Part shown: positions 16,086-44,990 of the stretch, one piece after another
How the letters are laid out: the number at the start of each line of letters is the position of its first letter
Numbering within the stretch: position 1 is the stretch's first letter
Notes under the pieces: generated by a model
What the model saw: only the letters and a program-made list of their open reading frames with translations
The model's database searches: none
What the model was told of the DNA's origin: nothing
Assembly: GCA_028534125.1 (NCBI GenBank)
Contig: CM052816.1
Location: 7,380,001-7,444,000 of the forward strand
Length of the DNA: 64,000 bases
DNA from: Lama glama
Taxonomy: Eukaryota
Reading direction: 5' to 3'
Position numbers and translations under genes: made by a program

Positions 16086-16128
<43 letters not shown>

Positions 16129-19400: not shown

Positions 19401-19692
19401 TAGACATCCATGACAGAACTTGAAGAAAGAAAAAAGAAATCAGGAATAAAGACTGGGCAGAGTTCATCTGTAGCCTTCAGTTTGGCTCATTCAAGAGGCA
19501 CACAAACTTCCCCCAGACATCTACCACGTGTGGGATCAATTAAGGAGAGACTTGAAATGTGGATATGAGTCCTAGCTGCAACTCACAAGTCGTGTGACAC
19601 TGGATAAGTCATGCTTTTAGAATGAGACGAATAATTCCTCTCTTGTTAAGCTGTTGTGGTGAAAATCTACTGATGAGAACCCAGTGGTTCTT

Positions 19693-19736
19693 AGGCAGCA
19701 GAGTGAGTTTAGTGAATACAAGTGGAGACCCTAGAG
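19693..19736 (+). mobile_element. MIR SINE 5' end (continues at 44372)
   Basis: ggcagcagagtgagtttagtgaatacaagtggagaccctagag resembles the MIR head up to CTCTGGAG. Confidence 0.5.
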
Positions 19737-19803
19737 CAGTGGTCCTCAGCCAGGGGTGGTTTTGGCAATGTCTGAAGACAATTTGGGTTGTCACTAGTAG
19801 GAG
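19737..19803 (+). mobile_element. MER20 (hAT-Charlie), left half
   Basis: CAGTGGTCCTCAGCCAGGGG..TTTGGCAATGTCTGAAGACAATTTGGGTTGTCAC matches the recalled MER20 5' part. Preceded by TSD ccctagag (19729-19736). Confidence 0.85.
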
Positions 19804-19963
19804 GGTAGTCACCACACACCAAAAAGATAATCATGGTGTTGCCAATCAGAGACGTCACGTACATAAGCAGGAATGCAGAAAATAGAAGAATTTCTACTTC
19901 TTTTTTATTCTGAAATCCTAGAAGGATGAACTCAGTGACTGTGGTCTTGTTTATGTGATCCAT
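19804..19963 (-). pseudogene. N-terminal half (N-terminus plus TM1) of a split olfactory receptor gene
   Basis: MDHINKTTVTEFILLGFQ..LLMYVTSLIGNTMIIFLVCGDY, then abrupt switch to MER20 sequence. Upstream polypyrimidine/AG acceptor at about 19981. Confidence 0.92.
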
Positions 19964-20047
19964 AATGTTCCTACTTGCCCCTGGTATAATACAAAAGAGG
20001 AGGATATGATTCGTTCTTTCATCTTAACCTTGGAAGTACCCTACCTA

Positions 20048-20547
20048 NNNNNNNNNNNNNNNNNNNNNNNNNNNNNNNNNNNNNNNNNNNNNNNNNNNNN
20101 NNNNNNNNNNNNNNNNNNNNNNNNNNNNNNNNNNNNNNNNNNNNNNNNNNNNNNNNNNNNNNNNNNNNNNNNNNNNNNNNNNNNNNNNNNNNNNNNNNNN
20201 NNNNNNNNNNNNNNNNNNNNNNNNNNNNNNNNNNNNNNNNNNNNNNNNNNNNNNNNNNNNNNNNNNNNNNNNNNNNNNNNNNNNNNNNNNNNNNNNNNNN
20301 NNNNNNNNNNNNNNNNNNNNNNNNNNNNNNNNNNNNNNNNNNNNNNNNNNNNNNNNNNNNNNNNNNNNNNNNNNNNNNNNNNNNNNNNNNNNNNNNNNNN
20401 NNNNNNNNNNNNNNNNNNNNNNNNNNNNNNNNNNNNNNNNNNNNNNNNNNNNNNNNNNNNNNNNNNNNNNNNNNNNNNNNNNNNNNNNNNNNNNNNNNNN
20501 NNNNNNNNNNNNNNNNNNNNNNNNNNNNNNNNNNNNNNNNNNNNNNN
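20048..20547. other. Assembly gap (500 N)
   Basis: N run. Confidence 1.
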
Positions 20548-20899
20548 GTCAAACCTCAGAAACACAACATCTTTTTCCCTGTAATTCTAGCAGGAGTCCC
20601 AGGGCCAGCTCTTATTGACCTGACTTGGGTCATGTGATTATCCCTTATTTAACCAGACCCTGTGGCACTGAGTGGCTGGATTACGGTTACATGTCTACTC
20701 CTGGAGCCCAGGACTTGGTTCAGTGCTGCTCAAATCATGTGAAATAAGAGTTGGGGAGGAGTGGTTCCATGAAGGAAAAATCAAAATACTGGTAGTAAAA
20801 TAAAATAAAATAAAAAAAAACAGGGAAGAAAAAAAAAAACAGGGAAGGATGCTAGACAGGCATCTTTTTTGGGGTAATAGAAGCAGTCTATGTCTGTGA

Positions 20900-21265
20900 T
20901 TCTGAAACTGTGTTAAGGCACCTCCAAGGAGCTGCTGCAAGCTCACGGGAGCACTGGGGGATAATTTAAATTTTCAAGGGAAACACAATGACATCTGTCA
21001 CACACCCCTTAAACTACTAACTTGAAGGAGTTCACAGCTGTACATTAGGTTACGCTATGTTCTTTTTAAAGATGTCATATCTTTGTGAAGTTGGATTTTT
21101 GGTGGTCTCTGATTGAAATGAAGAACTAAGTGAAAATTGGTTTGGGACAAGAAATGGGGCAGGCAGGGTCCAGTCTAATCCAAAAGTTTAAGGATTTGTG
21201 CAGGGCCTGACAGGCACTCACATCAGTAGATAATTTCGCTTACTTCAGAATGAAATAAAAATACT
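20900..21265 (+). mobile_element. hAT-Charlie-type DNA transposon fragment
   Basis: Resembles recalled Charlie internal sequence (gaaatggggcaggcagggtccagtctaatccaaaagtttaaggatttgtgcag); subfamily uncertain. Confidence 0.45.
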
Positions 21266-21289
21266 TTTGCCAAAAACAAACAAACAAAC

Positions 21290-21600
21290 AAACAAACAAA
21301 ATAACAAATACATGTATGTATTTGCATGACTGGGACATTGTACCGTACATCAGAAATTGACATATAGTAACTGACTGTACTTAAATTTTTTTTAAAGTTA
21401 AAAATAGAACTACCATATGATCCAGTAATCCTACTGCTGGGTATATATCCTAAGAAAATGAGAACAGAATCTCCTAGAATATCAGCACCCCATGTTCATT
21501 GCTCTTGTAGCATTATTCTCAATAGCTAAGACATGGAAATAACCATAGTATCTGTCAAGGAGGAATAGATGCAGACAATGTGAGATTGAAATTATATATA
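21290..21600 (+). mobile_element. L1 3' fragments
   Basis: Short L1 tail followed by atagaactaccatatgatccag..catggaaataacc. Confidence 0.7.
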
Positions 21601-23838
21601 TGTTGTGTATGTGTAAATTTATATTCACATTTTAACTATGCATTTACACTGCTGTTAAAATTTCAGCTACATCTCAAGAAAAATTGCTCTGATGGTTGTT
21701 GGGTGATTTGGCCAGGTTGTCTCAATGACTGTGAGTTTCACAGATGAAAGGAGAGAAGAAGAAAATAAATATATATTCATCCCTTACTTTTTCCAAGGGC
21801 AACAAGCCCTGATAGTGTTCAAGAGAAAATATATGCCTTCATCAAAATATTAACAGCCATAAATTTGAACAGTCCTGTATCTCCAAGGCAGGTGAGAACA
21901 CACCATCCAACAATTTCATCCAGTTTAAATAATTCTTGACTTTAAGATCTTGAGTCCTACAAAGTTCACCCAAAACAGTACGGGGAAGACACACAGACAA
22001 ATCCTATGATTTTCTTGTACTTTAAGGACATTTTTTTCCTTCATGTTACAATTACTTCATGTTAAAATGAACAAGCATAGAATGTTCTAGAGCTTCTAGA
22101 ACTTTTTTTCCCTTTTAAAAAAATTTCAACAACCTTTTCCATTACTGGCTTAGGTCTGATTTGTAGCAAACTTGGTGAGACACCCTTTGTTTCCAAAAGG
22201 ACAAAATTAGACTCCAGGGTGGTTTACTAAAACAGTTATAACACCAACTTCTTTATGAATGTTGCATTCAAATAAGTGGTTAACTATAAAATAAATACTT
22301 GGGAATCTGGTATGTAAAATGAACAATGGGTTGAGTTCTTAATATTTTCTTTAACTTTATATGGTATTATATTAACAAATCTCATGTATTCTGTTTTTAT
22401 ATGATGAGAACTTGATTCTTTCATACCACATACAAACTTAGAGATACAGAATAAAATATGGGATAAAAAAAATAACCAAATTTCAAATTTGTAGTAGCAA
22501 CATAGTGTTATTATTTCATTTCTTTCTTCAGGTATGCATACATTTTCTGACTCTTTCTAGAATTAAATAATTTTGGAAAATCTATTTAATCTCAGACATC
22601 AAGTCTCAGTATGTTTATATTATGGCTCATGGGGCATAAGCAGACACAATCAAGCTAACATTTGATAAAAATTTTTAAATGACTTCGAGATCAGTAACAA
22701 TCCAGAGGAGAAAGTGACAGGGTATTTTTGAATAATACATGAATACCCCACGAGTGATGTGATTACATCACTTAGCGATAATGGAAAGACAGAATGCAGG
22801 TAAGAGGAGCATGGAAGATACTGAACGCCAGAGAGTGAAGGGAGGATGAGAAATGTAGAGACTGGGGATATACTAATTGTGATCACCAGAATGGAGGTTA
22901 AATTTTAATATCAACTGGGATGTCTGAAGTGGGACACAATTGTGGAGAAAAGTATGCATGATTTCTAACTAAGAGCTAGAACTGAGAGAAAATGTTCCCA
23001 TCTCTACATGTGACAAGAAGAGGGAATGGAAGGGAAGTGTGTGCAATCTAGTCAGAAACTACGGCTGTCTTGCCAAACTGAATGGAAGGGCTGGGCTTCA
23101 AGGCAAAGCAGAGTCTAGTTTCACAAATTTTTGTTTAAGTAGCTGAGAAACTTTAACAAACACACAAAGCAGTAATTAGACGTGTGTCTGTGCTTGGTAT
23201 GAATTAAATGATACGTTCAGTTTTGACCATGTTGAGGCTAACATGACGGTAATACAGTGAGCTGGACTGGATGTCTAAATTAGAGACACAGAAAATTAAG
23301 TGTACTCCTGGACAGGACAGGGAGAACTGATAATGAAAAGGGTCATAGGAAAAGGGAGAGAAACAGGGAAATGTAGAGTAGGTGGAAGCTAAAATTGAGG
23401 AAGCATGAAATGAAAACATGAAGGAGAAATACCACATTCAGTCAGTCAAATAAGGGTAAGAAGTATCAAGAGTGATCTATAGATACATATCAATCTAGAA
23501 ACAGATAAAAACATACAGTTGATATAAGGATATGGATATGACTATAAATCCAAGGTAACTTACAACAGGCTCAGTTTATAACTGTTATCCTGGTAAAATT
23601 ATTAACAATTCTCTGCTGACTCTCAGAAATGTGAAACTTCAGGTGACAAAGTTCCAGCAGATAAAGATCAAGACATACAAATACAGGAAACTAATTTTAT
23701 ATATATCTGTGCATGTGTGTGTGCAAAAATTTCTCTGTGTAGGTAGTAGGTATTCCACATACAGCAATTTTAAAATGTTACATGTATTATTTCCAGGAAT
23801 TGACTCTAAAGTGAACACTGAATCATTCCCTTCTAAAA

Positions 23839-24775
23839 TTACACTTGCTGCAAATGTGCCCTATGACATAACACCCTTCTGACTGCTCCTTTCACCTCTG
23901 TGTTTCTCAGGCTGTAGATCACGGGGTTTAACATTGGAGTAATAACTCCATACAGCATGGAGATGAGTCTGTCTCTTGCCGGGGAGTGCTGGCTGGAGGG
24001 GCGCACATAGGTAAATATTGTCATGCCCCCAAACAGACAGACCACCAGAAGGTGAGACGCGCAGGTGGAAAAGGCTTTACGCTTCCCTTCCACTGACTGC
24101 ATCTTGAGGATGGTAGATATGATGTAGAAGTAAGAGATGAAGGTGACCAGGAAGGCACTGCTCCCCAAGATACCGGCTTCCACCAAAATAAGCATTTCTG
24201 CCACGTAGGTGGATGAGCAGGAGAGGGCCACCACTGGTGGGATGTCACAATAGTACTGGTTAACTCGGTTGGAACTGCAGAAAGAAAGGCGGAATGTGGA
24301 CACTGTATGAATAAGGGAATTGAGAAACCCTGCTGCCCAGGTCCCAGCCGTCAGCTGGACACAGCGAACCTTGGTAATGATGAGGTTGTAAGAAACAGAT
24401 GGCCACATACCGATCATAAGCCATGACAGAGAGAAGGAAGACTTCCGTCCCCACCAGGGCTACAAGAAAATAAAGCTGCAAAGCACACCCAACAAAGGAA
24501 ATGCTGTTCTTCTCAGTCAAGAGGTTCTCCAGCATCTTGGGGACAGTAGTTGATGGGCAGAATATGTCCAAGAGGGATAGATTTGCCAAAAAGTAATACA
24601 TGGGTGTGCGCAGTTTTGTCTCAGTCCCAATGGCCAAGAGAATGGCCCCATTTCCCACCAAGGTAAACTGATAGATGATCGCAAAGACCACAAAGAGAGG
24701 GTAGCGCACCTCAGGGAGGTCAGAGAGCCCTATGAGGACAAACTGAGTCACTGTGGTTTGATTGTAGACGTCCAT
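23839..24775 (-). pseudogene. Olfactory receptor (OR5V1-like by eye) with one frameshift
   Basis: MDVYNQTTVTQFVLIGL..LRTPMYYFLANLS..MAYDRYVAICF / YNLIITK..KAFSTCASHL..PMLNPVIYSLRN. The PLR of the PLRY motif is missing at about 24391 (about 8-nt deletion; total 937 nt). Confidence 0.9.
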
Positions 24776-25021
24776 CTCCTCTGCACATGAGGGCCTATCT
24801 GGAGGGAATGTAACCACAAACACAGGTTAAAGAGCCAAAGAAGCTAGTGATGAGAAATTCTTGTGTAATGCTTCGTGTGTGCTTGATGAGGAATTCTGTT
24901 AAAACTATACTTTAATTAGCGATTTTGATTATTACAACCACTCTTAAAGACATCTCCTGTGTTTGTCATCCTCAAAAGATTCATTCTTAGTTCCTTATCA
25001 AGAGGAATCGCTCTGAGAAAC

Positions 25022-25536
25022 TGTAACAGAAAAGAACAAATCTGATTCCGTATTAGATCTGTTCCTTTGGCTTTAACCCTGGGCCCTGTTTTCTAGGCTT
25101 AGTCTTGCCAGCCCTGCACCTTTTGCAAAAGAATGTTGCCTTCAGCCTAAAGTATACAGGAGGGCCTATTCTCAAGGCTCTGACCTTTAAGGGTATTAAC
25201 ACTTTTGCCCCTGTATAAAGATGACAAGTTGCAGAATAGAAAATAACATTTGTTTGTTAGAGATTTTTCCAGGGGCACCATGACCTGACCCACAGCTGCA
25301 AGAACAAAGGATTCCTACACCAAGAAGTTTGCAACAACCAGCCATACTCCCTCCCCTTTTTAGTATAAAAGGAGCCTGTATTAAGACTTGGGGAAGATGG
25401 TTCTTGAAGACATTAGTCTGCCATCTTCCCAGCCTTCCGGCTTTCCAAATAAAGTCGCATTCCTTACCCCAACACCTTGTCTTCCGATTTACTGGCCTGT
25501 CATACGGTGAGCAGAATGAGTTTGAGATCAGTAACA
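25022..25536 (+). mobile_element. Solo ERV1-type LTR with 4-bp TSD
   Basis: TG..CA termini, TATAAAA, AATAAA, TSD aaac on both sides. Confidence 0.88.
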
Positions 25537-28500
25537 AAACCAAGGCAATGTTTCAAAATCTGTCTTCAATAAAACTTGTGATCCCTTCAAGAATGCTTGA
25601 GATTTCACAATTCAGTGACAGCGGATGGTGTGTTTCTCGTAACTGCTTGGGCAGTTACTTTATTTGGCTCTGTATTACCTCAATGCGTACAGTTTTATTG
25701 CACTATCTCAATTCAAACTATCTTGAAGATAGAATCTGTACATTATCCCTTGATAGCCATACTGGATACCAACACATTGTATGAAAATATTTCACTAAAT
25801 GATTTTTGAATAAAGCAATGAATGTTACTTTACCTGCTCTGACAAAGTGCTTTTATTTACTAGTAGAAATAAATATGGAAATGCTTTCATAAGTTCAAAA
25901 TCATAATTATTTAAATATCAATAAATATGTAGTTTCCAGAAAAAGATACTGTAATAAAAATTAAATTAGCCTATAAAATATAAGTTAAACTTGGTTTGGG
26001 TCTAAATGTGACCCAAACAAGAAACAAATACATTAATATTCATTTTCTTTACTTTTTCAAATGATATATTTCACCATGTGTCTAAGGATATTTCAAGAAA
26101 TATAGGACTTAAAAAATTATGTATGTTTGAACACATTGGTGATACTAACTCTTATTTAATTTTATAATTGCATTTGTGTGTATCTTACTAGTCCACATAA
26201 TCATAGTGTTTATGATAGTTACAAAAATGACTCTAATTCAAGATCTACAAATCAATACCTCTATGGATTTTTTTGGTCACTTTGAAAAGTAACTTTTTTT
26301 TTTTAATATCACATGTGTTATAGCAAAAGATGATTAGAAAATAAAATGCTAAAGTCACTTTCAGTGGTCCCCCTTCCACATTTATTTTGCCTACTGGAAA
26401 TTGTTAATGATTTCTTTACTGAGATAAAATATATTAGTATAAATAATATAATTTATGCACAATGATTTATTTATACACATGAAATGAAATTACTTTCTGT
26501 CACTTTTTGCCCCATGCAATATTGAAATAAGAATCTCTGAGACACCTTGGGAGATATTTTTACTCTTTCTACAAGCAGTGCCAAATCTGTGCCAGATGCT
26601 CAGGAGAAAACCAAACCAAACAGAACAAAACTTTTATCAGTAATACTCAAGTGGTGATATTTAGAAAAGAAAATTACTGTGATAAACACAAAGTGTCTGG
26701 ATAGCATTAGTCACTCAATACAAGATGTTTAATGAGTGAATTAAGAAGATCAAAACAAAAACTTCTACTGTGTCAGCTCTCAAATTCTCAAATTTCCAAG
26801 ATTATATAAAGCTGTTCAGTTTCAGCTCATCTACATCTTATAAACTAATATTTTGAAAATAATGCAGATTTCTGAAATTTTTAAGTGAACTTTCCTTATA
26901 CGAAAAATTAGTAACTTGAGACAGTAAATATTAAGTTTTATATTAAATACGCATTTTCCTTTATACCCACGCTTACTAATTTGACTCATTGATTTTTTTA
27001 GCAAGGATTATGAAAAGTAAGTCAAAAACATCCGACAAACACATAAGGTAGTTCTACATCAGGTTACATAATTAATATGCATTTTTTAAAGCATAATAGA
27101 CTTTCTCTAAATTGTGTAATTTATCACTTAACATTTATTAAATCAAATTCATGGTCTTGGCATACAGAATGCAGAATTTGTATATCTGGGGTGGGAACTT
27201 TTTCTTGTATTAACAAAACCCTCCTTTTAAATCAAATATAATTGAAGCTTAGGTATTTGCCATATAATTAGAAAACTGGGTGCTTTTTCAAATAATGTGT
27301 TGTTAAGGAAGGTCTATAACATTTCTTATTAACCCAAGAGACTGGCAGCACATATTTTAGAGAATCAAAGAAATTCTTACGAAGTACAATCTCTCACCTC
27401 TTTTGTGAAATTAATTGGTGTAAATATAGACATATGTATATATGAGGAATCCTGGTTGAAATCAGTTTTTTGTCATAAAAGGCCAAACACATAATGAGAA
27501 TTGGAATTAGGGATGTGTGGCTTAAGATGAGCCTTCTCTTGGAATTACCCAGAAAACATCTTTTTTATTATTTATATATGACTTACTGTCTTGCACATGG
27601 CAAAACTCAAGTGTACTATACATGAGGCTTTTTCCTTTAGCATATAGTCACTTCAAATTTCCACTATATAGAGAAAAAGAAAATTAGTTAATTAAGTAAG
27701 AAAAATCACTGAGAAATGTTAGATCGTAAGATAATTCAAAAATTATAATTTATTTAGCACAGCAATATCAAAGAAATACTACATTTAAAATTTCTCTTAA
27801 AATCAGAGAAAGTTTTTTGTTAAACAATATTGCTAAAGAAATTCTATAGTCTTGATTTTTAACTCATGAAGTAATAGCCAATAAAATAAATCAAAAAATC
27901 CCTCATTAAGTTTACTATCTGCACCAGCTTTGTGACATCTTTGTTGCCTGTAGGCTTCATGTAGGTTTCCCCAATTTTCTAGAGAATGTACATTCAAAAC
28001 TATGGGTCAGAAACATTGATTTGGATACAGCAGCATTTCCATACAGAGGTTTTGGGTGCACACTTGTGTGGGTATGCACAACTTTTAGGACTGAAATGAA
28101 ACAGTTCAAAGCATTTATACAGACACCCATTCTATCATATTTGAAATTTCTCACCTGATCTTACCCATAAAGCATTCATTTTTAACTCATTTGTTAAATG
28201 CGTACATCTTCTCACCCTATTAACATCGTTACAAACACCCAGTTGTTTACCTTAGCTTAAAAAGTCTAGAATTTAATGTACAACTTTCTAGCCCTTTCAG
28301 TGTCAGATACCAGCATTCACTAAGAAGAAAGTAAAACGCTCCAGCCCCCACAAAAGTCTCGGTAAATAAAAGCAAACTACTCACTACTCACTACTCAAAA
28401 TACACACCTAAAGAAGGTGCTATTTATTCTGTAGTTTATATTATGCCCACTTTTCCCCAGGGGGGAGACCATAATAAGGACTAGAGAGAGAATAAAGCGC

Positions 28501-31780: not shown

Positions 31781-31816
31781 TATATATATGTATTTTTTAT
31801 TGAAGTCTAGTCAGTT

Positions 31817-32232
31817 TGTAATAGAAAAGAACAAATCGGATTCTGTATTAGATCTATTCCTTTAGCTTTAACCACTGTGCCCTGTCTTCTAGACTTAATA
31901 TTGCTAGCGCCGCACTCACGTAAAGATAACAAGTTGCAGAATAGAGAATAACGTTTGTTTTGTTGGAGGGTTACAGGGGCACCATGACCTGGCCCATGTG
32001 GACAGCTGCAGGAACAAAGAATTCCTACCAAGAAGTTTGCAACAACCAATCACACCCCCTTCCCTTTTTTAATTAAAAAAGAGCCTTAATTCTGACTTGG
32101 GTAAGATGCTTCTCCAAGATATTAGCTGGCCATCCTGCCGGCTTCCTGAATAAAGTCACTATTTCTTGCCCCTCGTCTCCCGATTTATTAGCCTGTCGTC
32201 CTGCGAGCAGAATGAGTTTGGACTCAGCAACG
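31817..32232 (+). mobile_element. LTR of the same family, internally deleted, without TSD
   Basis: Aligns by eye to the 25022 LTR. Left flank agtt, right flank (g)cttt. Confidence 0.85.
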
Positions 32233-33732
32233 CTTTTAGATTTGGGAACCCATGTGAATGTGTTACCTGTTTATAATTCAGTAAATACATTTTTATCGAA
32301 ATGCTCCTTTGCCGGAACCCAGTCAATTCTGTTAAATCAATTACAGCATCACAATAGCCTCTCCATCATCTGTTCTCACCTCCAACACATATCCTGTCAC
32401 CACCACTGTCCCCACTCTGCAATTACCCTGGGAAGAAGTAGGATGCTTTTTAAAAATTACATATTCTTTATGTTTTAGAACCAAACTTTCTAATTATCAA
32501 TTTATAGTCATAAATCCTTATAAATGCAAACTGCTTTCAAACATATGGTCTAATTAGGTCATTACAACACACCTGTGACAGTTTATTTGTTTTTAGCCCC
32601 ATTTTATAGAAAAGTGAAGCTGTAAGAAACTAAGGGCCTTGCCCAAGGTCACTCCTCTGGAAATGACAGGGCAAATCTCCATCGTCTGAAGAACAGCTGA
32701 CATTCCTTCTGATGCCGCTTGGAGGTCGGCAGCTTCCACACCATCCTTCCCGTCTCCAAAAAGGGAAAAAAGGAAAGATGACAGGAGGCCTTTGACGGAT
32801 TTTATTTCCATCCCCTGACATTCCAAGACAGACTGATGTAAGCGTGGTTCAGTCTGGGTCTTGGTCCTGGGGGGGGACAGTCCTGGCAGAGAGAGGAAAA
32901 TAGCCAACTGGAAGGAAGGAAAACGTTCCTGGCTGGTGTGGAGAGGTCCCTGCCAGTAAACGGGACGGATGCTCCAACTTGCCACAGACATGCCCCAAGG
33001 TCCCATTAACACCATGGTGCTGAACCAGAAAGACGCTGCACACTTAGGTAACACTGCCGACTTCCTGGCAACTTTCAAAAGCAAGACTGTTTCTACTGAC
33101 AGAGGTGTGGGTGGGACGTTTGAGGATGGAACTGAGAATGGGAGGGAGGGTTTGGCAGCTGAAGATGGAGTTGCAGGGCGCCCTGGGTGTGCTTCTCAAA
33201 AAGTTTCCCTATGTAAGATTTTCCTCCGGTTCCATTTCTTAACCTCCTGACCGACTCTAGAGTCCCAGATTCACGTGATGCTAGCCATGAAAAGAATGAG
33301 ATGCGCCCTTCACAACTGTTGCCTGGAGCCATGGTGGAAGCCGACTGGGGGCTCAGAACAGTAGCAGCAATAGTCGAAAGGACAGCTTGTAACCAGAATT
33401 TCTCATCATCTAAGTACGGTACATAATACAAGAAAGCCGTGTAACATGCAACATCCAAGGCCATTCATAATGGTCTCCAACATGTGTTCTGATTACCAGA
33501 AGTCTGTCACCACGCCTCCTAGCGGAATAAGGTGACATGGATAGCTCCTCTGATCTCTTCTGATACATCACCCAGGAAAAACACAGACTGCTTCTGATGC
33601 AACATGACGTATTTATCCCAGGCAGGAGAGAAAATTGGATGCTCAACCATCACACAGAAAAGGCTGAGAATTTTTATTTTTTTTTCCCTGAAGAAAGAAA
33701 TAAGTAATTGTCAATAGCTCTTTTGACAGCTT

Positions 33733-33762
33733 CAATTCACAATTCACAATTCACAATTCACA
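33733..33762. repeat. (AATTCAC)4 heptamer tandem repeat
   Basis: Seen directly. Confidence 0.9.
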
Positions 33763-35274
33763 ACTACTTTCATGACTCCAGAGGTTGTAAAAAGCATCAT
33801 AAAATGTAACAGCTTAAATTTACCAGAAAGCCAACTTTGTTTAGTCTCACCCTAAATTCTCAGATGAACTTGCAAATTTCACTTAGCTCTGATGTGGTAC
33901 CTTCCCAAGAGGCCAGGAGATAAAGATAGAAGGAGCCAAGTGTGAGGTCCATCAGCTCCAACACCTAAATTCGGCTCCATGGCAGCTCAGCCAAATGGAA
34001 GAGCTCATTTTCTTCCTCCCAAAGCTTCTGATTCTTAGAGCAATGCAGCACGCCCACCCTCTGTTATCGAAGAGACCCAGGTGATGAAAGGGAAAAGGAA
34101 TTCTCCCCTAGATTAACATTGGACCACCAGAAATAGGACCATCTTCGCACTGAAACAGTTCTCCATGGCCACATTGTTCTATTTCCTTCTAATGACGGAA
34201 GATCTAATTCCAGGGAAATGCTAATAGCTTCATTATGTGGCCACAGGGCTAATCAATTACATAGCTAAAGAGTTTGGGGACTGAGCTATGAGGTATTTTT
34301 GGAACAACATCTGACCCCTTGATATAAATCTATTGTTACCAAGTGTAAGTAAAACTCACCAATTGGAGAATCAAAGGACAAGACTAAAGATTTCATGTGG
34401 AATATGGTCGCGTCTGACTCAGGCTCACTCTTGGTAAGTCCAGTTCAGTGTGGAGTGGGTGCTGGTACAGCCTAAAAGGGTGAAAAAAACGCAGGTGCTT
34501 GGAACCATGTTGGGAGCAAAACATAGGACAGGTGCTCAGAAAATTCTGGCAACCCATGGAGGAGGGGTCAGAAGAGTCTAGGAGTCTCTGTCAGGAGGGT
34601 AGCCCTACAGAAGGAACCCTTGGTGATGTCAGGCAAGTAAGGATCAACAGTTCTCCTTAGTTGGACGCACCCGCCCACGATGAGAAGTTTCTGTGCAAAG
34701 AATATGAAGAGAGTCACCAGGTGTCAGAGAGGTTCGCAAGAACAAGGCCACTATGCTAAGCCACCCACAGGGCAAGAGACGGACACTTCCCGTGAGGCCA
34801 TCACGGATGGGCGGAAAGAAGCCACCTGACATGTGCAAGTTGGTTCATGAGCCCATAAAGGAAGTCCCTGTCCCAGGAGACACCCACATCCCTACATCAG
34901 AACTCTCTCCAGCGGTCTGCCACGTCATCCTAAAAACATCTCAGATGGAGACTGGGAGCCGTGGGGCCCCCGCCTCACCTGACCTGGTCCCATCATCATC
35001 CCAGCTCAGTTGTGGCAATGCCACTCCTTTGGCAAAGTGACGGTCTTCAAAATGTCCCTGCAACTCTGGCATCTACCCCAGATTGGAAGATCCCTTTTAC
35101 ATTTTCATGCGCAAAATTATCCTGACCCTTATGTTCCACAATTACGTTGCTCATCCTATAACTCTATGTCTTAGCAATTATACGTAAGAATCATAGAAGT
35201 GTTCGATTTAACAATTACTTCATTTCCTTGAGGACTTTTTCCTTCCTCTTAGAAAATTCCTTAGATCGTTAGAC

Positions 35275-35277
<3 letters not shown>

Positions 35278-35315
<38 letters not shown>

Positions 35316-35345
35316 GTAATAATAGTAATGATAATAATAATGGTA
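35278..35345. repeat. (AAT)n microsatellite
   Basis: Seen directly. Confidence 0.95.
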
Positions 35346-35751
35346 GTAGTCACCGTGCCTCGCAGGTACCGAGTGCTTACTCTGTCCGGCACTATGCTAA
35401 AGGCTTTACACATTTACGTTTCCTACATCATTAAATCACATCACATCAGCCCTGCAGCATAGGTGCCATTATTGTTTCCATTTTACAGAAGAGGACACTG
35501 AGGCACAGTGTGCCAACTTTCATCCCATCTTGTTCCCTCACTTTGTGAGGAGCCACGCCAAAGAGTCAAACCTCAGGAACCCAAAGTTTATGAGCAGCGT
35601 TTGTTTACTGCTGGGAGCGAGGGGGCTGAGGGGAGGATGAGACCAGTCTGGGCTTTTGGGAACAGTCTCTTGACTTCCTAAGTCACAAAATTCACACAAG
35701 AGGTAGCTACTCTATTATTTTCCTGTGGCACAGGGAACAGCCAGCTTTTAC

Positions 35752-35925
35752 CTTACTATCTTCCTGGATCTCCCAGTCACTGGAGAAACTCACCAGTTGC
35801 TGCCCTCGGGAAAGCTGGAAAACTGGAAAAGGCTGGAGAGCATCCTTCTGTTCCCCTGAGTGTCGGGAAAGACGGCATCTTGGAAAATGACTCCATGAGG
35901 CTAGAGGTTATCCTTTTCATCCATC
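35752..35925 (-). pseudogene. CCDC3: CCDC3 unprocessed pseudogene, second coding exon
   Basis: cattag|G MDEKDNL*PHGVIFQDAVFPDTQGNRRMLSSLFQFS../GQQLVSFSSDWEIQEDSK|gtaaaa vs human MDENYNLLPHGVNFQDAIFPDTQENRRMFSSLFQFS..GQQLATFSSDWEIQEDSR. Confidence 0.93.
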
Positions 35926-36452
35926 CTAATGGAAAAGCGGGGGAAGCAGAGCTGTAGACTGGACAGCCATGGGGAGGACCATCTTGAATCAAGTCAGAGA
36001 AGACTGTGACAGTGTTGCCAGGTACACAACACTGTCTCCCACAGAGGACTCTCAGCAGAGGAGCTATTTCTAATGGTTTCTCGGCCTCATGCTGCATGAG
36101 TCCATCCTTAAGGTTTTCAAAACCCCCTCTAAGGATAGCCCAGGAGATCACCTACCCCTGGCCCTGTGGCCAGCAGACGGCTCAGTCTGGCTTGAACACC
36201 CTTCCCCAGAAACCCTCTTCTGTCCACCAAGCACAGGAATCATCCTTGTTTCCCCAAGTCTTAGCCAGAGGTACTCAGGCTCTTTGCACAGACTTCAGGA
36301 GAAGCAGGAAGGAATAAACAGTACAAGGGAAGGGGCCCACGGCATATTTGAACATTTCAGGGACAGGAGTCCCTGGTTCCGAATAAAGGTGCCCTCGATT
36401 TGTCACGCAAGTGGGCCGAGGGGGTGCTGTGGGTGGATGGCGGCGGGCTCAA

Positions 36453-36830
36453 CTGAGGAAAAAAGAATAGGAGTAATCGTGAACCACGGTGTGGTGTGAG
36501 AGTGACATGAAAAGTAGCCCAGGCTGGTGAGGTTGGGCCTGGAGCCCACGGGCACCTGGAGCATGATGCCCCCACGCCTGGTCTCAGAGCATTTCCATCT
36601 CTGCCAAGTAGAGAGCCCGCCTTCCTGGCCTCATACTGCCAGGACAGGCAGTTGCACAGGCCTGGCACCTCGTGGTGCAGCGCCAGCACCTTGGGGTACC
36701 TGATCGTCCCGGCCAGCTCGGCGCGGCAGCCCCTTGCTCAGGGGTCTGGACTCGGAGGGCTGCTGGCAGCCTCGCGCGGTCCAAGCCAGCCGGGTAGGCA
36801 GCGCGCGGAGAGCAGCAGCGGGCGAAACTG
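36453..36830 (-). pseudogene. CCDC3: CCDC3 unprocessed pseudogene, first coding exon
   Basis: CQQPSESRPLSKG/CRAELAGTIRYPKVLALHHEVPGL..AEMEML*DQAWG/MLQVPVGSRPNLTSLGYFSCHSH/TVVHDYSYSFFL vs human CQLPSEWRPLSEGCRAELAETIVYARVLALHPEAPGL..AEVEMLCDQAWGSMLEVPAGSRLNLTGLGYFSCHSHTVVQDYSYFFFLR. ATG lost, about 5 indels, TGA at 36584-36586, donor GT>TT. Confidence 0.92.
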
Positions 36831-37290
36831 CTCCCGCTCAGCGGGAGCGGGACGGGGAGGCGGGTGCGCCGCGCCCGGGGCGCACTAGGCAGGGGCGCAT
36901 GGCGGGAAGCCCGGGAGCAGGGGCGCCCGCGGCGGGGAGCCCTGAGCGCCCGGCCCACGGCGCCGCCCTGCGGGCCCCGGAAGCGCAGCTCTGGGCTCTG
37001 GGCTCCGGGCTCCGCGCGCCCCTCTCTCCGAAGCCGGGCTCACCCAGCCGGCCCGCGCCCCGGACACTTCAAAAGGGGCGCGGGGCGCGCCGGCTGCTGC
37101 CTCCTGCTGCCCCCCACGGGGGGCGTGCGCAGAGGCGGCAGGGGCAGAAGTGGGGAGCCGGCCAGGGGCGCGCGAGGTTCAGGCTCGCTAGACGCGCAGC
37201 GCTGGATGCTTGGGGGGGTCCTGGGGGATGGGGGGTGGCGGCTCCGCGGAAAGTCAGTGCCGGGAGCGTGGCCCCGCCTGCCCTACTGGG
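36690..37290. promoter_or_regulatory. CpG island (promoter region of the CCDC3 copy)
   Basis: Very GC- and CpG-dense ~600 bp over and upstream of the CCDC3 start. The only such island in the window. Confidence 0.8.
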
Positions 37291-37985
37291 TCAAACCTTT
37301 TCAGGCTTAAAGCCTGCTCCAGACGCAGCATCCTAAAAAGATCGCAGTCAATGGCCGTGATGACTCTAGCTACGCTTTTGTATTTTCTATGAAGTTCATT
37401 TAAAGTCAAATACATAGACATTTGACTTTGCAGAGGTTAACTAGGAAATTCAGAGTCTTCTAATAAAGTTTTCTAGATTGTCCATCTGCTTATAATAATG
37501 GTCTTAGGAAAGCCTTAATAAAAGATTTGAAAAGCCAAAGCCATAGTGCTCCAATTTTCCTACATCTACGTGATTTCATGATTTACATAATTTTAACTTC
37601 CAGATTTGGAAGATTTTACATCTGAGGAACAAAATAGGAAGCAAATTCCAAACAGCTTTCCACAAGTGAGCAAGCGAAACTGACCAGACTCAAACTGCAG
37701 TTTTACCTTTATCTCTAAACTCAGCAGTTCCCTTTCCCTCCAAATTTCCTTAACTGCTACTAGTGTAGTAAGAAGAAAAAAAAGGATTTTTAAATAAATA
37801 TGTATACTATCTTATGTATTCATACATCACACGTGTACATAATATCATGCATGTAATATACATATCATCAAGGAGGTTACCCCTTATGTTTCCTTCCAAA
37901 AGTTTTATTCTTTCAGGTCTTACGTACAAGTATTTAATCCATTTTGAGTTGATTTTAGTGTATGGTGTAATTTCCAGTGTCATTC

Positions 37986-38504
37986 TGTTACCAACTCCAA
38001 ACTCATTCTGCCCACCACACAACAGGCCAATAAATCGGGAGAGGAGGTGTTGGGGCAAGGACTAATGACTTTATTCGAAAAGCCGGCAGACCAAGAGGAT
38101 GGCAGACCAATGTCTTGGAGAACCATCCTCAAATCAGAATTCAGGCTCCGTAAACACTAAAAAGTGGAGGGGATGTGGTTGGTTGGTGCAAACTTCTTGC
38201 TGTAGGAATTCTTTGTTCTTATAGCTATCCTCCTAGGTCAGGTCATGGTGGCCCCTGTAAAACCTCTAACAAAACATGTTATTTTCTATTCTGCAACTTG
38301 TTATCTTTATATGAGTGCAAAAGTGTTAATATCCTTAAAGGTCAGAGCCTTGAGAATAGGCTCTCCTGTCAATTTCCGGCTAAAGGGAACATTGTTTTAC
38401 AAAAGGTGCAGAGCCAGCAAGACTAAGCCTAGAAAACAGGGCACAGGGTTAAAGCCAAAGCAACAGATCTCATATGGAGTCAAGATCTGTTCTTTTCTAT
38501 TACA
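37986..38504 (-). mobile_element. Solo LTR of the same family inserted in an L1 fragment
   Basis: Reverse complement of the 25022 LTR, TSD attc on both sides. L1 sequence continues across it (about 37870-38560). Confidence 0.88.
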
Positions 38505-38654
38505 ATTCTTTTGCGTGCAGCCGTCCGTTTTACCCAGCACATTTGTTGAGGGGACTATCACCAGCATTCATTGGCTTCAGAACCTCACCTCCCATCATCA
38601 CAAAATCTCTCTTCATCTTATTAAAGAATGAATTCAGGAATCAAAATTGGCAAG

Positions 38655-38850
38655 ATTTTTTTTCACAAGTTCTTAAACTGTGGCAAGATACACATAACAG
38701 AAAATTTATCACCTTAACCACTTTTAAGCGTGCAGATCACTGACGTCAACTTTCACATTGTTGTGGGGCCATCATCACCATCCAACCCTGGAACTCTGTT
38801 CATCTTGCAAAACTGAAACTCTGTACCCATTAAACACTAAATCCCATTTC
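38655..38850 (-). mobile_element. L1MB-like 3' end
   Basis: cacataacagaaaatttatcaccttaaccacttttaag..aactgaaactctgtacccattaaac. Confidence 0.75.
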
Positions 38851-40489
38851 CTCTACTTACAACTCATTGGGCTTTGGCCTGAGCAACTGGAGAGACTGTG
38901 GTCCCCTCTCTTCTCCTGTACTTATTACTGCTGTTCATCTTTTGATGGCATTTCCCTTGACTTGACCAAACTGTCCTTCAATGCTTATTTTAACCCCATG
39001 TTATAAATATTGCTAGTTGGGCTCAGACATGGTGGTTTACTTGGGACAGCCACCTACATACAACCCACGGTGATTTTTAGTTTCAGAATTTTCCTAATGC
39101 CTACTGCAGGGTGCTGGTGTTTCTCATCCCCTAGTGGCTGATGTTTAGGGTTACCTAAAGTGAGCATCTAATCCCTAAATTCACTCCAAAAGTCATGATT
39201 TCCACGGCTATGACTGCAAAAAAGACAAAGGAAATTTAAAATATTAAGGGGTTTACTGTCCCTATTATCATTTGTTTAAGAACTTTCAGGTTGCAAAGTG
39301 CTTTTTTTTTTTTAACCATACATTGTCACATTGCCTCACCTCCACAAACCGTCTAAGGTAGTTATTTTCATGCTATTTTTCAGAAATGAGGAAAGTGAGT
39401 CTGAAAGAGAAAGTAACTTGACGAAAGTCACGCAAATGGTCCAGTCTCTGTCCCCGCTCATCCCCAAAAAGGGAGATGTTGAAGTTGCAGGAAATCCGAA
39501 ATGACTACCATCGTTACTTCCTTGAAAAATAATAATTCCAAATAAACTAACTGACTGAGCTTTGGTTACAATTTTAATTTGGTTGAGGGAGGTTCAAGCC
39601 TAAACTTCTCATCTCCATCTTACTTATTTGGTTATTTGAAAGACTGCCATCTTGAAAACTTACTTAAATATTCTCATTTCTTCTTATATTGTTTCATTCT
39701 CTTACCATAACTTGATAGTTAGCTTCCTCTTCATTCCTGTGCATAAATTTAACTGCTTGTCAGCCGTAGAAAACTGATGTTCCTTTTCCTCTTAAATGGT
39801 CCTAGTGCCTATCAGATCCTCTCCAGCTTCCCTGCATCTTTCTGCATCTGTGGCACAGAAATACACAACTGTACCATGTACTGAAGTGGTAAAAATCTCA
39901 CTCTGCCCTTGTTTCTCATCAGATTTTCCTCCAGCCCCCTTCTCTTTATAATTGGCCCCCTTTCAGCTCTCAGGGCCTCAGCACAAATGGTTACTTTAGG
40001 GACAAATTGAAATTATAGGAAATATTTTGTGTTTATCCCTCATCCTCCCTCGACTGTCTTTTTAATATTGATCAACGTAGCATAAGGAGTTTTTCTGGGG
40101 TTTCCTCCTCATGAGCTGGACCCTGGGGTCCATCCTGGGGCTCTGTCTGCGGCAGCTCCCAAGCCATGAGTCTCCTTTGTCTTTCACGGGAACTGATGGT
40201 GCACTTGGGGGAGGGGAGGAATGAGCAGATGTGAGCAGCTATCTTCAGGTTGTAGGGGAGAGAAAATGTTCCATTTTCAGATCCCAGAGTCCTTCCATCT
40301 AGCCAAGGGTGACCCTGCTTTCAGGACAGCCACATTCCAAACGCCAGGTGATGCGTGGAAATCAAGAGACTTGTGGAAAGAGGGGGTTCTCACCCATCAT
40401 TAGCTGTGTGAGAGTCTGTGTTGAAGAGAAGGGCCTTGGATCTTTGTAAAATCCTGTGGAAATCTTCTGACCCCTTTCACACTGAGTCT

Positions 40490-40995
40490 TTTTTTTTTAA
40501 TTGAAGTTTAGTTGATAGACAATATGATAGTTTTAGGTGTACAGCAAAGTGATTCAATTATACATATATTATATATATGTTCTTTTGCATTATAGGTTAT
40601 TAAAGATGTTAAATATATTTCCCTGTGCTCTACAGTAGGTCCTTGTGATTTATCTGTTTTATATATAGTAGTGTGCATCTGCCAATCCCAAACTCCTAAT
40701 TTATCCCTTCCCCCTCTTCCCCTTTGGTAACCATAAGTTTGTTTTCTATATCTGTAAGTCTGTTTCATTAATCAGTTTATTCGTATCATTTTTTTAAAGA
40801 TTCCACATATAAGTGATATCATATGATTTTGTCTTTCTCTCACTTACTTCACTTAGTATGATAATCTCTAGATCCATCCTTGTTGCTGCAAATGGCATTA
40901 TTTCATCTTTTTTAGGGCTGCATATTATTCCATTGTGTATATATACCACATCTTCTTTATCCAGTCATCTGTCAGTGGACATTCAGGCTGCTTTT
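40490..40995 (-). mobile_element. LINE-1 3'UTR (artiodactyl type)
   Basis: Poly-T start, ctttggtaaccataagtttg, gattccacatataagtgatatc. Confidence 0.85.
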
Positions 40996-42199
40996 TAAGT
41001 TATCACAAGTCTCAGTCCTACTGACGTCTCTGGAGTGCTGTGTGTTTTCAGTTCAGTTTCTTCATGAGCTGTCACTGAGTCTCCAGAGTTCAAGAAGAGA
41101 ATGACTCCTCTTCACACTCATCCCTCCACCTGCTTCTCTCCCACTGCTCATCCTTCCCTTCCTCACAGAATACCTTCTCTGCATTAATTTTTTTTTCCTG
41201 TCTTCAAAGTCTCTTTAACATGGATTCTCTTGTTGCCAAAAAGTATTTTGGTACATCTACCCACAAATCCCTGCATCATGTTGTAACCATACACTTGGCC
41301 ATTTCACATGATAACCTCTGTAGATAACTGACCTGCACAGACAGCTTGGTATCCCCTCCCCCTCCCCCCAAGTGTGGGCTGAAACCCTACCGGGAATTTA
41401 AATTTGTGACTTTTAAATTTGTGAGCTGCCCATTCTTCTCTCCCCCCTGGTTCTTTGCTGATAAGCTCTTCCTTCCCCTGTAATAGAAGCTTTGGAGGCA
41501 GGAACAAAAGTAGCTTCCTGTTCTGCCTCAACTGTTTACTATGCTTAATTAATTCATCTATGGTGATTTCTATCTTTATTGGCCAGGATTACATTCATAT
41601 TCAAAAACTTAGTTTTCAGCGATGGTTTTATAGTCTAAAGTATTTACCAGAGTAGGTCTGGCTTTGATGACCAACTCCACAGAAAAGACTGCTATTTACC
41701 ACCTTTCAGTCACTCAAGAAGCAACACAGGTGGTGGTGGAGGATTGTGACCGCTTGGGCATAAAAGGCAATTGGTTTCCCACTGTGGAAATGAAAAGGCA
41801 GATCTGGCACCATCGGTGTCTGTGATGCCAAGGTATGTGTGACAAACAAAAAGAGAACAATGGAAGGTTAAGTTTCAAAACATAATAAAAGCATAGGATC
41901 TAGTATACAAAAAATGACCATGCTTTTGGGGACTTCCTTCACCTGATGTGAAGTAAAGATGAAAGAAGGGATTGGCCAGCATGTCCAGAGTTTCTGGTTT
42001 TGCTGTTGTATGGCTCTCATACACGTTATATGTGGGAAAGATCTCAAAATGCCTTCCCCAATGAGTCCAGTCTTCTGGAAATTTTCTTCACTGTGAGAAC
42101 CAAACACAGTCAGTTGGCATCTGGAAGTTAGGTAAATGCCACTTTAACCTTCAGGAAGCATCAAGAATTAGCAAACTGTGGGAACCCACTCTCCCTCTT

Positions 42200-42720
42200 C
42201 TCCAACTGCATTGGCCAGATTCTTTGGTTGTTAAGTATGGAAAGCCCAATGAAAAACTGGCTAAAGGAACATGGGAAGGAGTTTATTCACCAACAAGTGA
42301 AAGTCCCAAAGAGAGCAAGCTTCGGACTCTGGCTGGATTCAGGGGCACAGATCACTCTCTCCATCTCTTAGTTCCACTCTGCTCTGTTTTGACTCCATTT
42401 TTAGGTTCTTACCTCATGGTGGCAAGATGGCTGCCAGAGATCACCATCTTTTATCCTCTCCTCTCATTAATCCCAGTTGGAAAAGTCCATCTCTCTCTCT
42501 CTCAAGGGTTTCAAATTCTAAAGAAGTCCTGAGAATTGAGTCTGATTTGGACTGACTGGATCATGGTCCCCGCTCTGAACTGTGGCTAGAGAAGAGGGCT
42601 TTCGTGTTGATATCGGCCACACCTGGATCTCGTGTCTACCACTGGAGCCAGGCCTAAATCACCTGGACCAAGAGGAAAGTGAGGGTGGGTGTTTTAGGAA
42701 GCCATCAGTTGCGTTACCAA
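42200..42720 (+). mobile_element. Old MLT1 LTR
   Basis: ctcatggtggcaagatggctgcc..tgatttggactgactggatcatgg. Confidence 0.6.
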
Positions 42721-43244
42721 AAGGAGAGAGCCTGGATCTCCTACAGGTGAAACAATGAATGTCCACTGGATCAAGTTACAGCCACAGCTGCCTTGATGGA
42801 GAAGCTGGTTTGTTCTAAGGCATGCAGCTTTTTCTACAGCTTCTGGAACTGACTGCACTGAACTCACCCAATTGAGATCCCTCCCACTGCTCTCCTGGAC
42901 AGCTGTGCCCATTGCTGTAAGTTTGTAACTCATGTTATCACTTCTCACTTACACAAGCTTAAAAAAAAAAAAAAAAAAAAAGAAAGCTAGACCATAATTT
43001 TTGGTGTATGGGTGTGAGTGCCTGGGGACAGAGGTTAAAAGAATTGACTTCATAGTTCAAGGTTAGATTTACTTTAGGAATCACATTCAAGATTCTGTCA
43101 GCCCTGGGCCTCAGGGAGGAGGGTGAAAGGGAAGGACCGGGAAGGACCTTCTCTGAGAGGAAGCCCCCTGCCCTGTGTTTCTGGTCTTGAGATGGCTGGC
43201 TGGGGTGGGGTCTCTGCCCCACAGCTCTCGCCCTCCCACCCTCA

Positions 43245-43744
43245 NNNNNNNNNNNNNNNNNNNNNNNNNNNNNNNNNNNNNNNNNNNNNNNNNNNNNNNN
43301 NNNNNNNNNNNNNNNNNNNNNNNNNNNNNNNNNNNNNNNNNNNNNNNNNNNNNNNNNNNNNNNNNNNNNNNNNNNNNNNNNNNNNNNNNNNNNNNNNNNN
43401 NNNNNNNNNNNNNNNNNNNNNNNNNNNNNNNNNNNNNNNNNNNNNNNNNNNNNNNNNNNNNNNNNNNNNNNNNNNNNNNNNNNNNNNNNNNNNNNNNNNN
43501 NNNNNNNNNNNNNNNNNNNNNNNNNNNNNNNNNNNNNNNNNNNNNNNNNNNNNNNNNNNNNNNNNNNNNNNNNNNNNNNNNNNNNNNNNNNNNNNNNNNN
43601 NNNNNNNNNNNNNNNNNNNNNNNNNNNNNNNNNNNNNNNNNNNNNNNNNNNNNNNNNNNNNNNNNNNNNNNNNNNNNNNNNNNNNNNNNNNNNNNNNNNN
43701 NNNNNNNNNNNNNNNNNNNNNNNNNNNNNNNNNNNNNNNNNNNN
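43245..43744. other. Assembly gap (500 N)
   Basis: N run. Confidence 1.
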
Positions 43745-44278
43745 TGGACAGAGGGAATTCTAAAGATTGTAATGATAATGTACGTGTAAGACAGTCCTGT
43801 CAGGAGCAAGGAACCCAGTACCAACACAGCAGAGGAGACAAAGTCAGCCAGTTCAGCCAGAGAGATATCCGCACAGACCAGCTTTAGCACAGGGGCACTG
43901 TCACAGAAAAAGTGATTGATTACATTTGGCCCACAAAAGGGCAGAGGAGCACTTAATATTGCTGATGCCAAAATTGACAAAAATGCACCTCCGTAAGATC
44001 CCAGAAGCAATGATACGCATGTTTTCTTGTTCATGATGATGGTATACCTTAGTGGGTTGCAGATGGCAACGTACCGATCGAAGGACATGACAGCCAAGAG
44101 GAAGAATTCTGTGGATCCCAAGAGAAAGTAGAAGAAAGACTGTGCAAGGCACCCCATGAAGGATATTGCTTTGGTGAGAGAAAGTGTGTTGGCCAGCATC
44201 TTAGGCACCACTGTGGACGTAATGGCAACCTGGAGAAAAGAAAGATTGGATACAAAGAAATACATGGGTGAATGCAGT
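43745..44278 (-). pseudogene. C-terminal part (TM2 onward, running into the gap) of the same split OR, family-6-like
   Basis: LHSPMYFFVSNLS..MSFDRYVAICNPLRY..NHFFCD..SYTYIIITIFRIPSV with no stop or frameshift. Its 5' side abuts MER20 sequence rather than TM1. Confidence 0.92.
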
Positions 44279-44371
44279 GCAATTAGTGCTTGGAAGCCAG
44301 GGACACAGTTAAACATCCTGCAATGCACAGGGCACCCTGAATGTCAGTAGTGCCAAAGCTGAAAAACCATG
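44279..44371 (+). mobile_element. MER20 (hAT-Charlie), right half
   Basis: GCAATTAGTG..GCCAGGGACACAGTTAAACATCCTGCAATGCACAGG..AATGTCAGTAGTGCCAAAGCTGAAAAACCATG matches the MER20 3' part, resuming within about 10 nt of where the left half stops. Followed by TSD ctctacag (44372-44379). Confidence 0.85.
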
Positions 44372-44590
44372 CTCTACAGCCGAGTTACCTGAATTCTGTT
44401 TATAGTTCTACCACTTCAAAGTTTGACAAATTACGGTACTTTCCTGTGCCTCAGTTTTCCCCTGTGGAAAATGAGACTAATACTAACACTTACCTCCTAA
44501 GGCTGTTGTGAGACTCAAACGGATTAATACATGTAAAGAGCTTAGGCTCCTGCCTGGTACACAGTTAAGTTCTCCTTAAATGTAAGCTGT
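44372..44590 (+). mobile_element. MIR SINE body and 3' end
   Basis: ctgtgcctcagttttcccctgtggaaaatgag..cttacctcctaaggctgttgtgag..atgtaaagagcttag..tgcctggtacacag is the MIR core and tail. Confidence 0.8.
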
Positions 44591-44594
44591 TATC

Positions 44595-44990
44595 TCCCCT
44601 AAACCTGGCTAAGCATCAGAATCGCTTTAAGACCTTGTCTAGTAACAGATTCCCAAGCCCTGCCTCAGTTGTACTGGATCTGAATCTTTGGAATTTGGAA
44701 TCCAGGAATCTGTGAGGTTTTTAGAGTTCCCCAGCTGATTCTGATGATCAGCCAAGTTTGGGAGTAATTACTCTGAAGCACTGCTGTGAGGAGTGGTCTT
44801 CAGACCAACCGCGTCAGCAGCAGCTCAGAGCAGTGCCACCCAAACTCCAGTGTGCACACGAACCACCTGGGAACATTGACAATGCAGGTTCCGATTCAGG
44901 AGTCTGGGTGGTACCTGAGATTGTGCTTTCCCAACAAGCCCCCAGGTGAGGCCGATGCTGCTGGTCCTCTGAGCACACTTTGAGTCACAA
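44595..44990. mobile_element. Two MER5-type DNA transposon fragments
   Basis: catcagaatc..ctgattctgatgatcagccaagtttggga and ccaggtgaggccgatgctgctggtcc..cactttgag. Confidence 0.65.

Follow-up and report, generated by a model that had tools for sequence, protein, structure and literature searches.

The window analysed here is a 64,000-nucleotide stretch of the Lama glama genome (GenBank assembly GCA_028534125.1, contig CM052816.1, positions 7,380,001 to 7,444,000; G000:C1:7380001-7444000 in our searches). It contains two pieces of an olfactory receptor (OR) gene, and each piece is fused to one part of a dispersed repeat. The repeat, which we take to be a MER20 (a non-autonomous DNA transposon of the hAT-Charlie type), has its left part at 19737-19803 and its right part at 44278-44371, both on the plus strand. 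At the left junction (19803/19804), the plus strand reads ...GTCACTAGTAGGAG|GGTAGTCACC..., and the DNA to the right of it (19804-20047) is the N-terminal piece of an OR6M1-like gene on the minus strand, with a start codon at 19963, 53 codons (19963 down to 19805) that end in VCGDY, and 84 bp of 5' flank. At the right junction (44277/44278), the plus strand reads ...GAATGCAG|TGCAATTAG..., and the DNA to the left of it (43745-44277) is the C-terminal piece, also on the minus strand, with 177 open codons that run from LHSPMYFF to ...FRIPSV. The C-terminal piece matches the Pfam family 7tm_4 (E = 5.9e-30). The 53-amino-acid N-terminal piece has no Pfam match by itself; it aligns to an alpaca OR (P0008) at 52 of 53 residues. 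Both fusions had been proposed by a first-pass annotation of this DNA, and both are present at the base level.

The four parts lie in a consistent orientation (both repeat parts on the plus strand, both OR parts on the minus strand), without inversion. This is the A1-B2...B1-A2 signature that the annotation had described, and rejoining restores both partners, as we checked against an intact paralog of the OR and against other copies of the repeat. The insertion joins show no poly-A and no target duplication, the latter in agreement with the annotation's proposal of integration without a target-site duplication. Microhomology at the joins is at most 0-2 nt (a GG is the most that is possible at the left join). 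The pair of joins is real and reciprocal to within 2 nt, and its right side, which is the side that was tested in other data, is common to three other organism labels.

The OR half of this reciprocity can be read from an unsplit relative. In the animal's own genome (2.35 Gb in 1,072,352 contigs), we found one close unsplit copy elsewhere, on an unplaced contig of 2,153 bp (L002; G000:C174880:1-2153). Its reading frame is a single open exon of 317 amino acids and encodes the same sequence as a named protein of the alpaca (P0013). The gene for P0013 is on a record of 40.3 Mb, and the scaffold that holds the window is at least 78 Mb long. The N-terminal piece (window 20047-19801) aligns to L002 687-933 at 97.2% identity and the C-terminal piece (window 44277-43745) aligns to L002 933-1450 at 95.7% identity with one 15-nt indel, so that both break ends map to one point, position 933. 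At that point L002 reads GACTACC-GT-CTGCAT (D-Y-R-L-H); the N-terminal piece ends in ...GACTACC and the C-terminal piece starts with CTGCAT, so 2 nt (GT) were lost, within the 0-2 nt or so that had been predicted for the rejoined block ends. Also, the two halves do not best match different receptors. The same full-length ORs are the best matches for both: P0008 matches the C-terminal piece at 171 of 177 residues, and L002/P0013 matches the N-terminal and C-terminal pieces at 51 of 53 and 167 of 172 residues. The closest named proteins are camelid and are called OR6M1-like, 6E1-like, or 49-like (95-97% identity), and orthologs in other mammals are 85-91% identical. Because the substitution divergence of the OR pieces from L002 is about 2-2.8%, the insertion event is probably old.

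L002 has some features of its own. Its OR6M1-like gene is intact apart from 15 nt that are deleted in frame in the DRY/IC2 region (ICNPL-----TRKK); its 3' end enters a young and very abundant repeat (over 2,000 first-look candidates at 92-94%); and its first 533 bp have no other match in the genome. The C-terminal piece in the window is truncated by an assembly gap. The C-terminal part of the OR and its 3' flank are assembled in L002 only.

The repeat half is similar. The MER20-like element is dispersed, and its left part matches copies elsewhere in the genome. The left and right parts are collinear with the 5' and 3' parts, respectively, of six full copies (L012-L017), and when the two parts are joined computationally, the product is collinear with all six of these, with at most about a dozen bases missing at the break. 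The annotation had claimed that removing the block restores one MER20 with its target-site duplications. The halves do fit together; the duplications are putative, as ccctagag (19729-19736) and ctctacag (44372-44379) agree at 6 of 8 positions, and a few bases may have been lost.

Independent sequencing runs contain the right junction. Words sampled from 18600-20047 were present at a fraction of 0.87-0.97 in 18 of the 23 public runs listed (six organism labels, nine studies), and four runs (X2, X4, X7, and X13; four labels, four studies) were aligned to 43745-45200. All of the aligned data are k=31 contigs, and X2 may derive from the source animal. In X2, X4, and X13, the first 30, 29, and 29 nt of the flank contigs belong to the OR, and from there the contigs pass into and through the repeat with the depth of the flank (14.5, 11.2, and 5.9). 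A contig built with k=31 can include no more than this beyond a node of several copies, so 31-mers that span the join were read in these three runs. The right junction is therefore unlikely to be a chimera of the assembly, since its k-mers occur in independent public data under three organism labels, at single-copy depth. The annotation had named misassembly as a possible undoing of its proposal, and for the right junction this was not borne out. On the flank side, we saw no empty-site branch and no alternative predecessor in X2, X4, or X13, in contigs of a kind that drop rare variants. This suggests that the insertion is homozygous in these three runs.

The same runs suggest that the OR is not a single gene. 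The depth on the OR side was about four times that of the flank in all four runs (57.7/14.5, 42.1/11.2, 41.4/10.4, and 23.6/5.9-7.5), and the last 139 bp of the OR side reached 7- to 14-fold depth in X2 and X7; copy number can be gauged only roughly from contig depth. A loose end at 44277 in X2 and X7 has the sequence ACGGTAGTCACCACACACC... and continues into the N-terminal half, which is the unsplit gene. In X2 this unsplit path has a depth of 96.4, versus 14.5 for the junction path, and across X2 and X7 the unsplit form is found at 6- to 14-fold flank depth. Since X4 and X13 lack such a loose end, the unsplit form was seen in X2 and X7 alone. The public OR contigs extend 580 bp past 43745. 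At positions 43821, 43990, and 44232, all four runs carry the letters of L002, which differ from those of the window, and so several variants of the OR must exist. (The right OR tail of the window may be a minor copy variant or a mosaic from several copies.) Thus, what is assembled as an OR6M1-like gene is apparently a family of several collapsed copies, and intact ones persist. The annotation's statement that an OR gene was split is therefore half right: the depth points to a multi-copy family, and unsplit copies survive (L002 and the loose ends in X2 and X7), so the donor sequence persists intact. The OR is the copied partner: its raised k-mer depth is consistent with several copies and intact forms of it remain. 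In contrast, the flanks are single copy, and our search of the own genome found no second copy of them and no empty-site contig.

The window is less continuous than the block that was first described. It includes three runs of exactly 500 N (1565-2064, 20048-20547, and 43245-43744), and the last two lie inside the 24.5-kb block, 244 bp inside the left junction (gap 1) and 533 bp inside the right junction (gap 2). The annotation overlooked these two gaps. The block from 19.8 to 44.3 kb is really three pieces: the last 244 bp on the left (19804-20047), a contig of 22.7 kb in its own right that we will term contig B (20548-43244), and the 533-bp head of the right contig (43745-44277). Both junctions are within contigs, not at gaps, yet they are within 550 bp of contig ends. 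At the contig level, the OR DNA that is physically joined to the flanks amounts to just 244 bp on the left and 533 bp on the right, and the OR tails are physically joined to only 18 kb of left flank and to 20 kb or more of right flank. Contig B is positioned by scaffold order alone. Two assembly gaps thus interrupt the block, and contig B may or may not belong to the insert. The size of 24.5 kb, the origin in an OR/CCDC3-copy locus, and the donor order ([32.2-44.3 kb][19.8-31.8 kb]) in the annotation all presuppose a continuity that the sequence lacks. In favor of an insertion, contig B bears an OR and was set between two OR tails, at a site whose flanks in the window hold no other OR-like sequence, and the scaffolder presumably made no use of gene content when placing it.

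We also followed the assembly graph outward from the gap edges. Neighboring contigs in this assembly overlap by exactly 199 bp, as is characteristic of assembly graphs of the K=200 type. The left OR tail ends at a branch with two continuations (L010, which adds 60 bp, and L011, which adds 153 bp) that are two SNPs apart, and both are collinear with the upstream DNA of L002 before they dead-end. Together with the 84 bp in the contig, L011 makes the left tail collinear with L002 for 237 bp upstream of the ATG. The right OR tail has no predecessor in the graph. As an explanation for where the right contig starts, a collapsed repeat was rejected, because its first 199 bp differ from L002, with the nearest mismatch 53 bp from the start. 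The left end of contig B continues into L070 (648 bp more), whose predecessors are L079 and C221252, and the 199-mer that the left end shares with L070 can also lead into L071, whose 852 bp are unrelated. The right end of contig B continues into a two-allele bubble (L075/L076, 400 bp more) and then into a tangle of edges that add 16-17 bp each. L079 (G000:C103121) consists of the reverse complement of the last 327 bp of L075 (99.4% identity), 7 bp, and the start of L070, so contig B lies between the arms of an inverted repeat that are 327 bp or longer (99.4%). In addition, an 847-bp edge to the left of contig B has two predecessors and two successors and hence is a collapsed two-copy segment. 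None of the extensions of contig B (L070, L071, L075/L076, and L079) matched the OR tails or L002. Given these walks, gap 1 should hold at least 153 bp of OR upstream DNA on one side and, on the other side, at least 648 bp that lead away from contig B plus the inverted repeat of about 327 bp. If the scaffold is right, then gap 2 must hold the last 80 or so codons of the OR with its 3' flank as well as at least 400 bp that continue contig B.

Contig B itself is a mosaic of duplicates of other loci (78-97% identity). Its most recognizable feature is an OR5V1-like (OR5AE-type) pseudogene at 23839-24826 on the minus strand, which is in two frames with a frameshift near 24390 (7tm_4, E = 1.7e-23 and 1.5e-20) and whose best match is a Camelus bactrianus OR at 95%. 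Synteny between OR6M1-like and OR5V1-like genes was considered as a tie between contig B and the OR tails and was rejected as too indirect: the two occur on contigs of the same chromosome-length sizes in about 10 species and not on the same 0.4-3-Mb scaffolds in 3. At its left end, contig B (20549-21273) is 97% identical to C34 near 15.62 Mb, and together with L070 the match covers 1.39 kb (G000:C34:15619809-15621194) at 97-98% with sharp ends, a divergence similar to that of the OR copies. C34 was rejected as the donor locus, as the match is just 1.39 kb, the 20 kb examined there contain no OR, and there is no overlap with L002. Two further segments are old duplicates of C32 loci: 32299-36122 is about 78% identical to C32 near 16.53 Mb, and 38565-42948 is about 82% identical to C32 near 2.32 Mb. 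(The unplaced contig C112486 is another relative, at 75-81%.) An LTR-like (long terminal repeat) element of about 520 bp is present in three copies, of which one is partial and one is inverted (25019-25540, 31816-32231, and 37996-38507); it is 84-89% identical to many genomic copies and is probably a solo LTR. Near 32 kb, the GC content rises from about 0.28-0.38 to 0.42-0.63, and the partial LTR-like copy is located there. The region that the annotation had put forward for the closure of a circle (31.8-32.2 kb) coincides with this partial repeat and with the GC step. Finally, a CpG-rich stretch at 36300-37400 (GC 0.67, CpG observed/expected 0.74) lies in otherwise AT-rich, OR-type DNA, and no protein family was recognized in its open reading frames (ORFs). 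The annotation also saw a copy of CCDC3 here, and we could not recover it: none of 19 ORFs of contig B outside the OR gave a Pfam match, which is a weak test.

The flanks gave little else. The annotation assigned SLC36 pseudo-exons to them, and none of 237 ORFs of at least 45 amino acids matched an amino-acid-transporter domain (E ≤ 0.01), in a scan from which short or decayed exons could escape. (These 237, out of 333 flank ORFs of that length, came from 5.8-19.6 kb and 44.7-58.1 kb.) That scan yielded remnants of L1 reverse transcriptase only, and we found no OR-like sequence in the flanks within the window. Both flanks contain L1-type remnants (15439-17236 and 55882-57600, with RVT_1 matches) that are inverted relative to each other and 71% similar. 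The claim that the MER20 lies inside one MIR was not confirmed either: the two flanks have short words in common that are collinear and come from one and the same section of the repeat (E = 0.09-0.3), and these words weakly hint at two copies rather than at one split copy.

We propose that DNA from an OR6M1-like locus, apparently multi-copy, was inserted into a MER20-like repeat at a non-OR site in a camelid lineage. A circle could have been excised from the OR locus; if the copies are in tandem, then recombination between neighboring copies could have made it. One break in the circular DNA and one break in the chromosome would then have been joined by non-homologous end joining, with 0-2 nt of microhomology. 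We rank this reading first because a single exchange between circle and chromosome explains both joins at once. With moderate confidence, we consider a permuted insertion via a circular intermediate to be the best explanation for the locus. The permuted insertion itself is real, probably old, and apparently fixed. That the two junctions lie in cis and bound one continuous insert, that the insert was a circle, and what it contained are all matters that we infer from the junctions and the scaffold. A broader version of this proposal is that a circle from an OR6M1-like array went back into the genome through end joining, at a site unrelated to ORs, became fixed in a camelid lineage, and may have seeded an OR-bearing island, possibly with several of the four or so collapsed copies; we offer this version only tentatively.

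Several observations weigh against the circular intermediate. First, scaffold order alone puts the two junctions in cis, across two 500-N gaps that lie inside them, and graph walks over 199-bp overlaps from all four gap edges never met, so no path links an OR tail to contig B. The last 80 or so codons of the OR, which the proposal puts in gap 2, are assembled nowhere for the split copy. Second, neither a circle-closure junction nor a donor locus was identified. Third, the read-level check spanned the right junction only, and there the supporting public contigs carry 29-30 letters of the OR side, which is under the 31-letter threshold for bridging. (X7 has no cover at 44284-44430, which is not evidence of absence.) Finally, as the OR is apparently multi-copy, two copies may each have broken independently at one fragile spot.

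This last point leads to the alternative that survives best, in which no circle was involved. Two independent breaks, or replication-based template switching (by microhomology-mediated break-induced replication or fork stalling and template switching), would produce the same joins if a MER20 end copied one OR copy and the replication switched back from another copy at the same spot. The 4- to 14-fold k-mer depth of the OR side suggests that several near-identical copies would have offered the same position many times as a template, and the microhomology of at most 0-2 nt fits either mechanism. However, both ends agree within 2 nt on one position of the OR, which is an unlikely coincidence for two independent switches, and we know of no hot-spot motif at the break site. 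We consider this alternative improbable.

A second possibility is a reciprocal translocation between the MER20 site and the OR locus, with the two derivative junctions on different chromosomes, or far apart, until the scaffolder united them. A balanced exchange gives exactly the A1-B2 and B1-A2 junctions, and the adjacency of the three contigs comes solely from scaffolding across gaps of fixed size, with tails that dead-end in the graph. Nevertheless, a scaffolder that uses contact data would presumably not adjoin flanks from different chromosomes, and it placed a small OR-bearing contig exactly between these flanks. So, a translocation seems quite unlikely.

Third, the junction pattern is symmetric and could be read in mirror image: the OR locus would be the host, the receptor gene would have received 38 kb or more of flank DNA in circularly permuted order (A2...A1), and the contig order in the scaffold would be wrong. 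The modest lengths of flank that are physically joined to the OR tails, as given above, leave room for this. But the flank is single copy and the genome contains no donor copy of it with an intact repeat, and it is the OR side that has the higher k-mer depth and the surviving intact copies, as expected of the copied partner. We regard the mirror image as very unlikely.

The joins could also be an assembly artefact, in which chimeric contigs wrongly joined reads from the OR family to reads from the repeat; it is suspicious that both junctions are so near contig ends and in a collapsed multi-copy family. This is highly improbable because the k-mers of the right junction were found at flank depth in three other runs from three studies, because the two junctions are reciprocal within 2 nt, unlike chance chimeras, and because no sequence shared at the joins is long enough to confuse a graph of the K=200 type. 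Finally, if the OR exon had formed a circular RNA and this had been retrocopied, the permuted order and the coding region of one exon would be accounted for. We consider this extremely improbable because the left tail is collinear with the genomic paralog for 237 bp upstream of the ATG, the public OR contigs run 580 bp past 43745, and the joins have neither poly-A nor a target duplication.

As it stands, the sequence proves two reciprocal joins only, and junctions that lie beside scaffold gaps in collapsed gene families need confirmation by long reads before claims are made about the block as a whole. If a circular intermediate was involved, then this locus would be a natural evolutionary example of the dispersal of OR genes between chromosomes by extrachromosomal circular DNA (eccDNA). 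Moves of OR genes to new chromosomal sites are mostly described as unspecified "segmental duplication," and a clean case would provide a concrete mechanism: a circle from an OR locus, followed by end joining at a new site.

To our knowledge, fixed germline insertions via a circular intermediate have been documented at very few mammalian loci, and KIT in cattle is the textbook example. The junctions there reportedly have the A1-B2...B1-A2 pattern, with an insert that is circularly permuted relative to its donor. The locus that we describe resembles cattle KIT in that the event would be in the germline, the pattern is circularly permuted, the donor is intact elsewhere, and the joins are of a blunt type with no target duplication. 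It differs from KIT in that its interior is unassembled, its putative cis-linkage comes from scaffold order, and no closure junction or donor locus was identified. Also, the insertion is apparently fixed across several related organisms, whereas the KIT insertions segregate within a breed. Its donor would be an OR family of several copies, and we know of no phenotype. In colour-sided cattle, the process is termed serial translocation by circular intermediates (Durkin et al. 2012, Nature 482:81), at least in the passages of PMC12235870 and PMC3784456 that cite that work. Our literature search found no report of the llama locus in the portions of the sources that it covered.

A second comparison is to the reintegration of eccDNA into chromosomes. 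A review (PMC9527254) describes both such reintegration and the formation of circles from tandem repeats. The likeness is that a circle would have been cut from a chromosome and joined by its ends at an unrelated site, possibly with a repeated array, which is a known source of circles, as its origin (PMC9527254). Unlike most documented cases, which are somatic or from cancer, the event that we propose would be germline and evolutionary.

The third comparison is to the ordinary segmental duplication of OR genes. OR6M1-like copies that are 96-97% identical are on different contigs, and contig B is a mosaic of duplicates of other loci (78-97% identity), which resembles such dispersal. However, an ordinary segmental duplication is collinear with its source, and at this locus the order of the two ends is permuted about one position in the gene.

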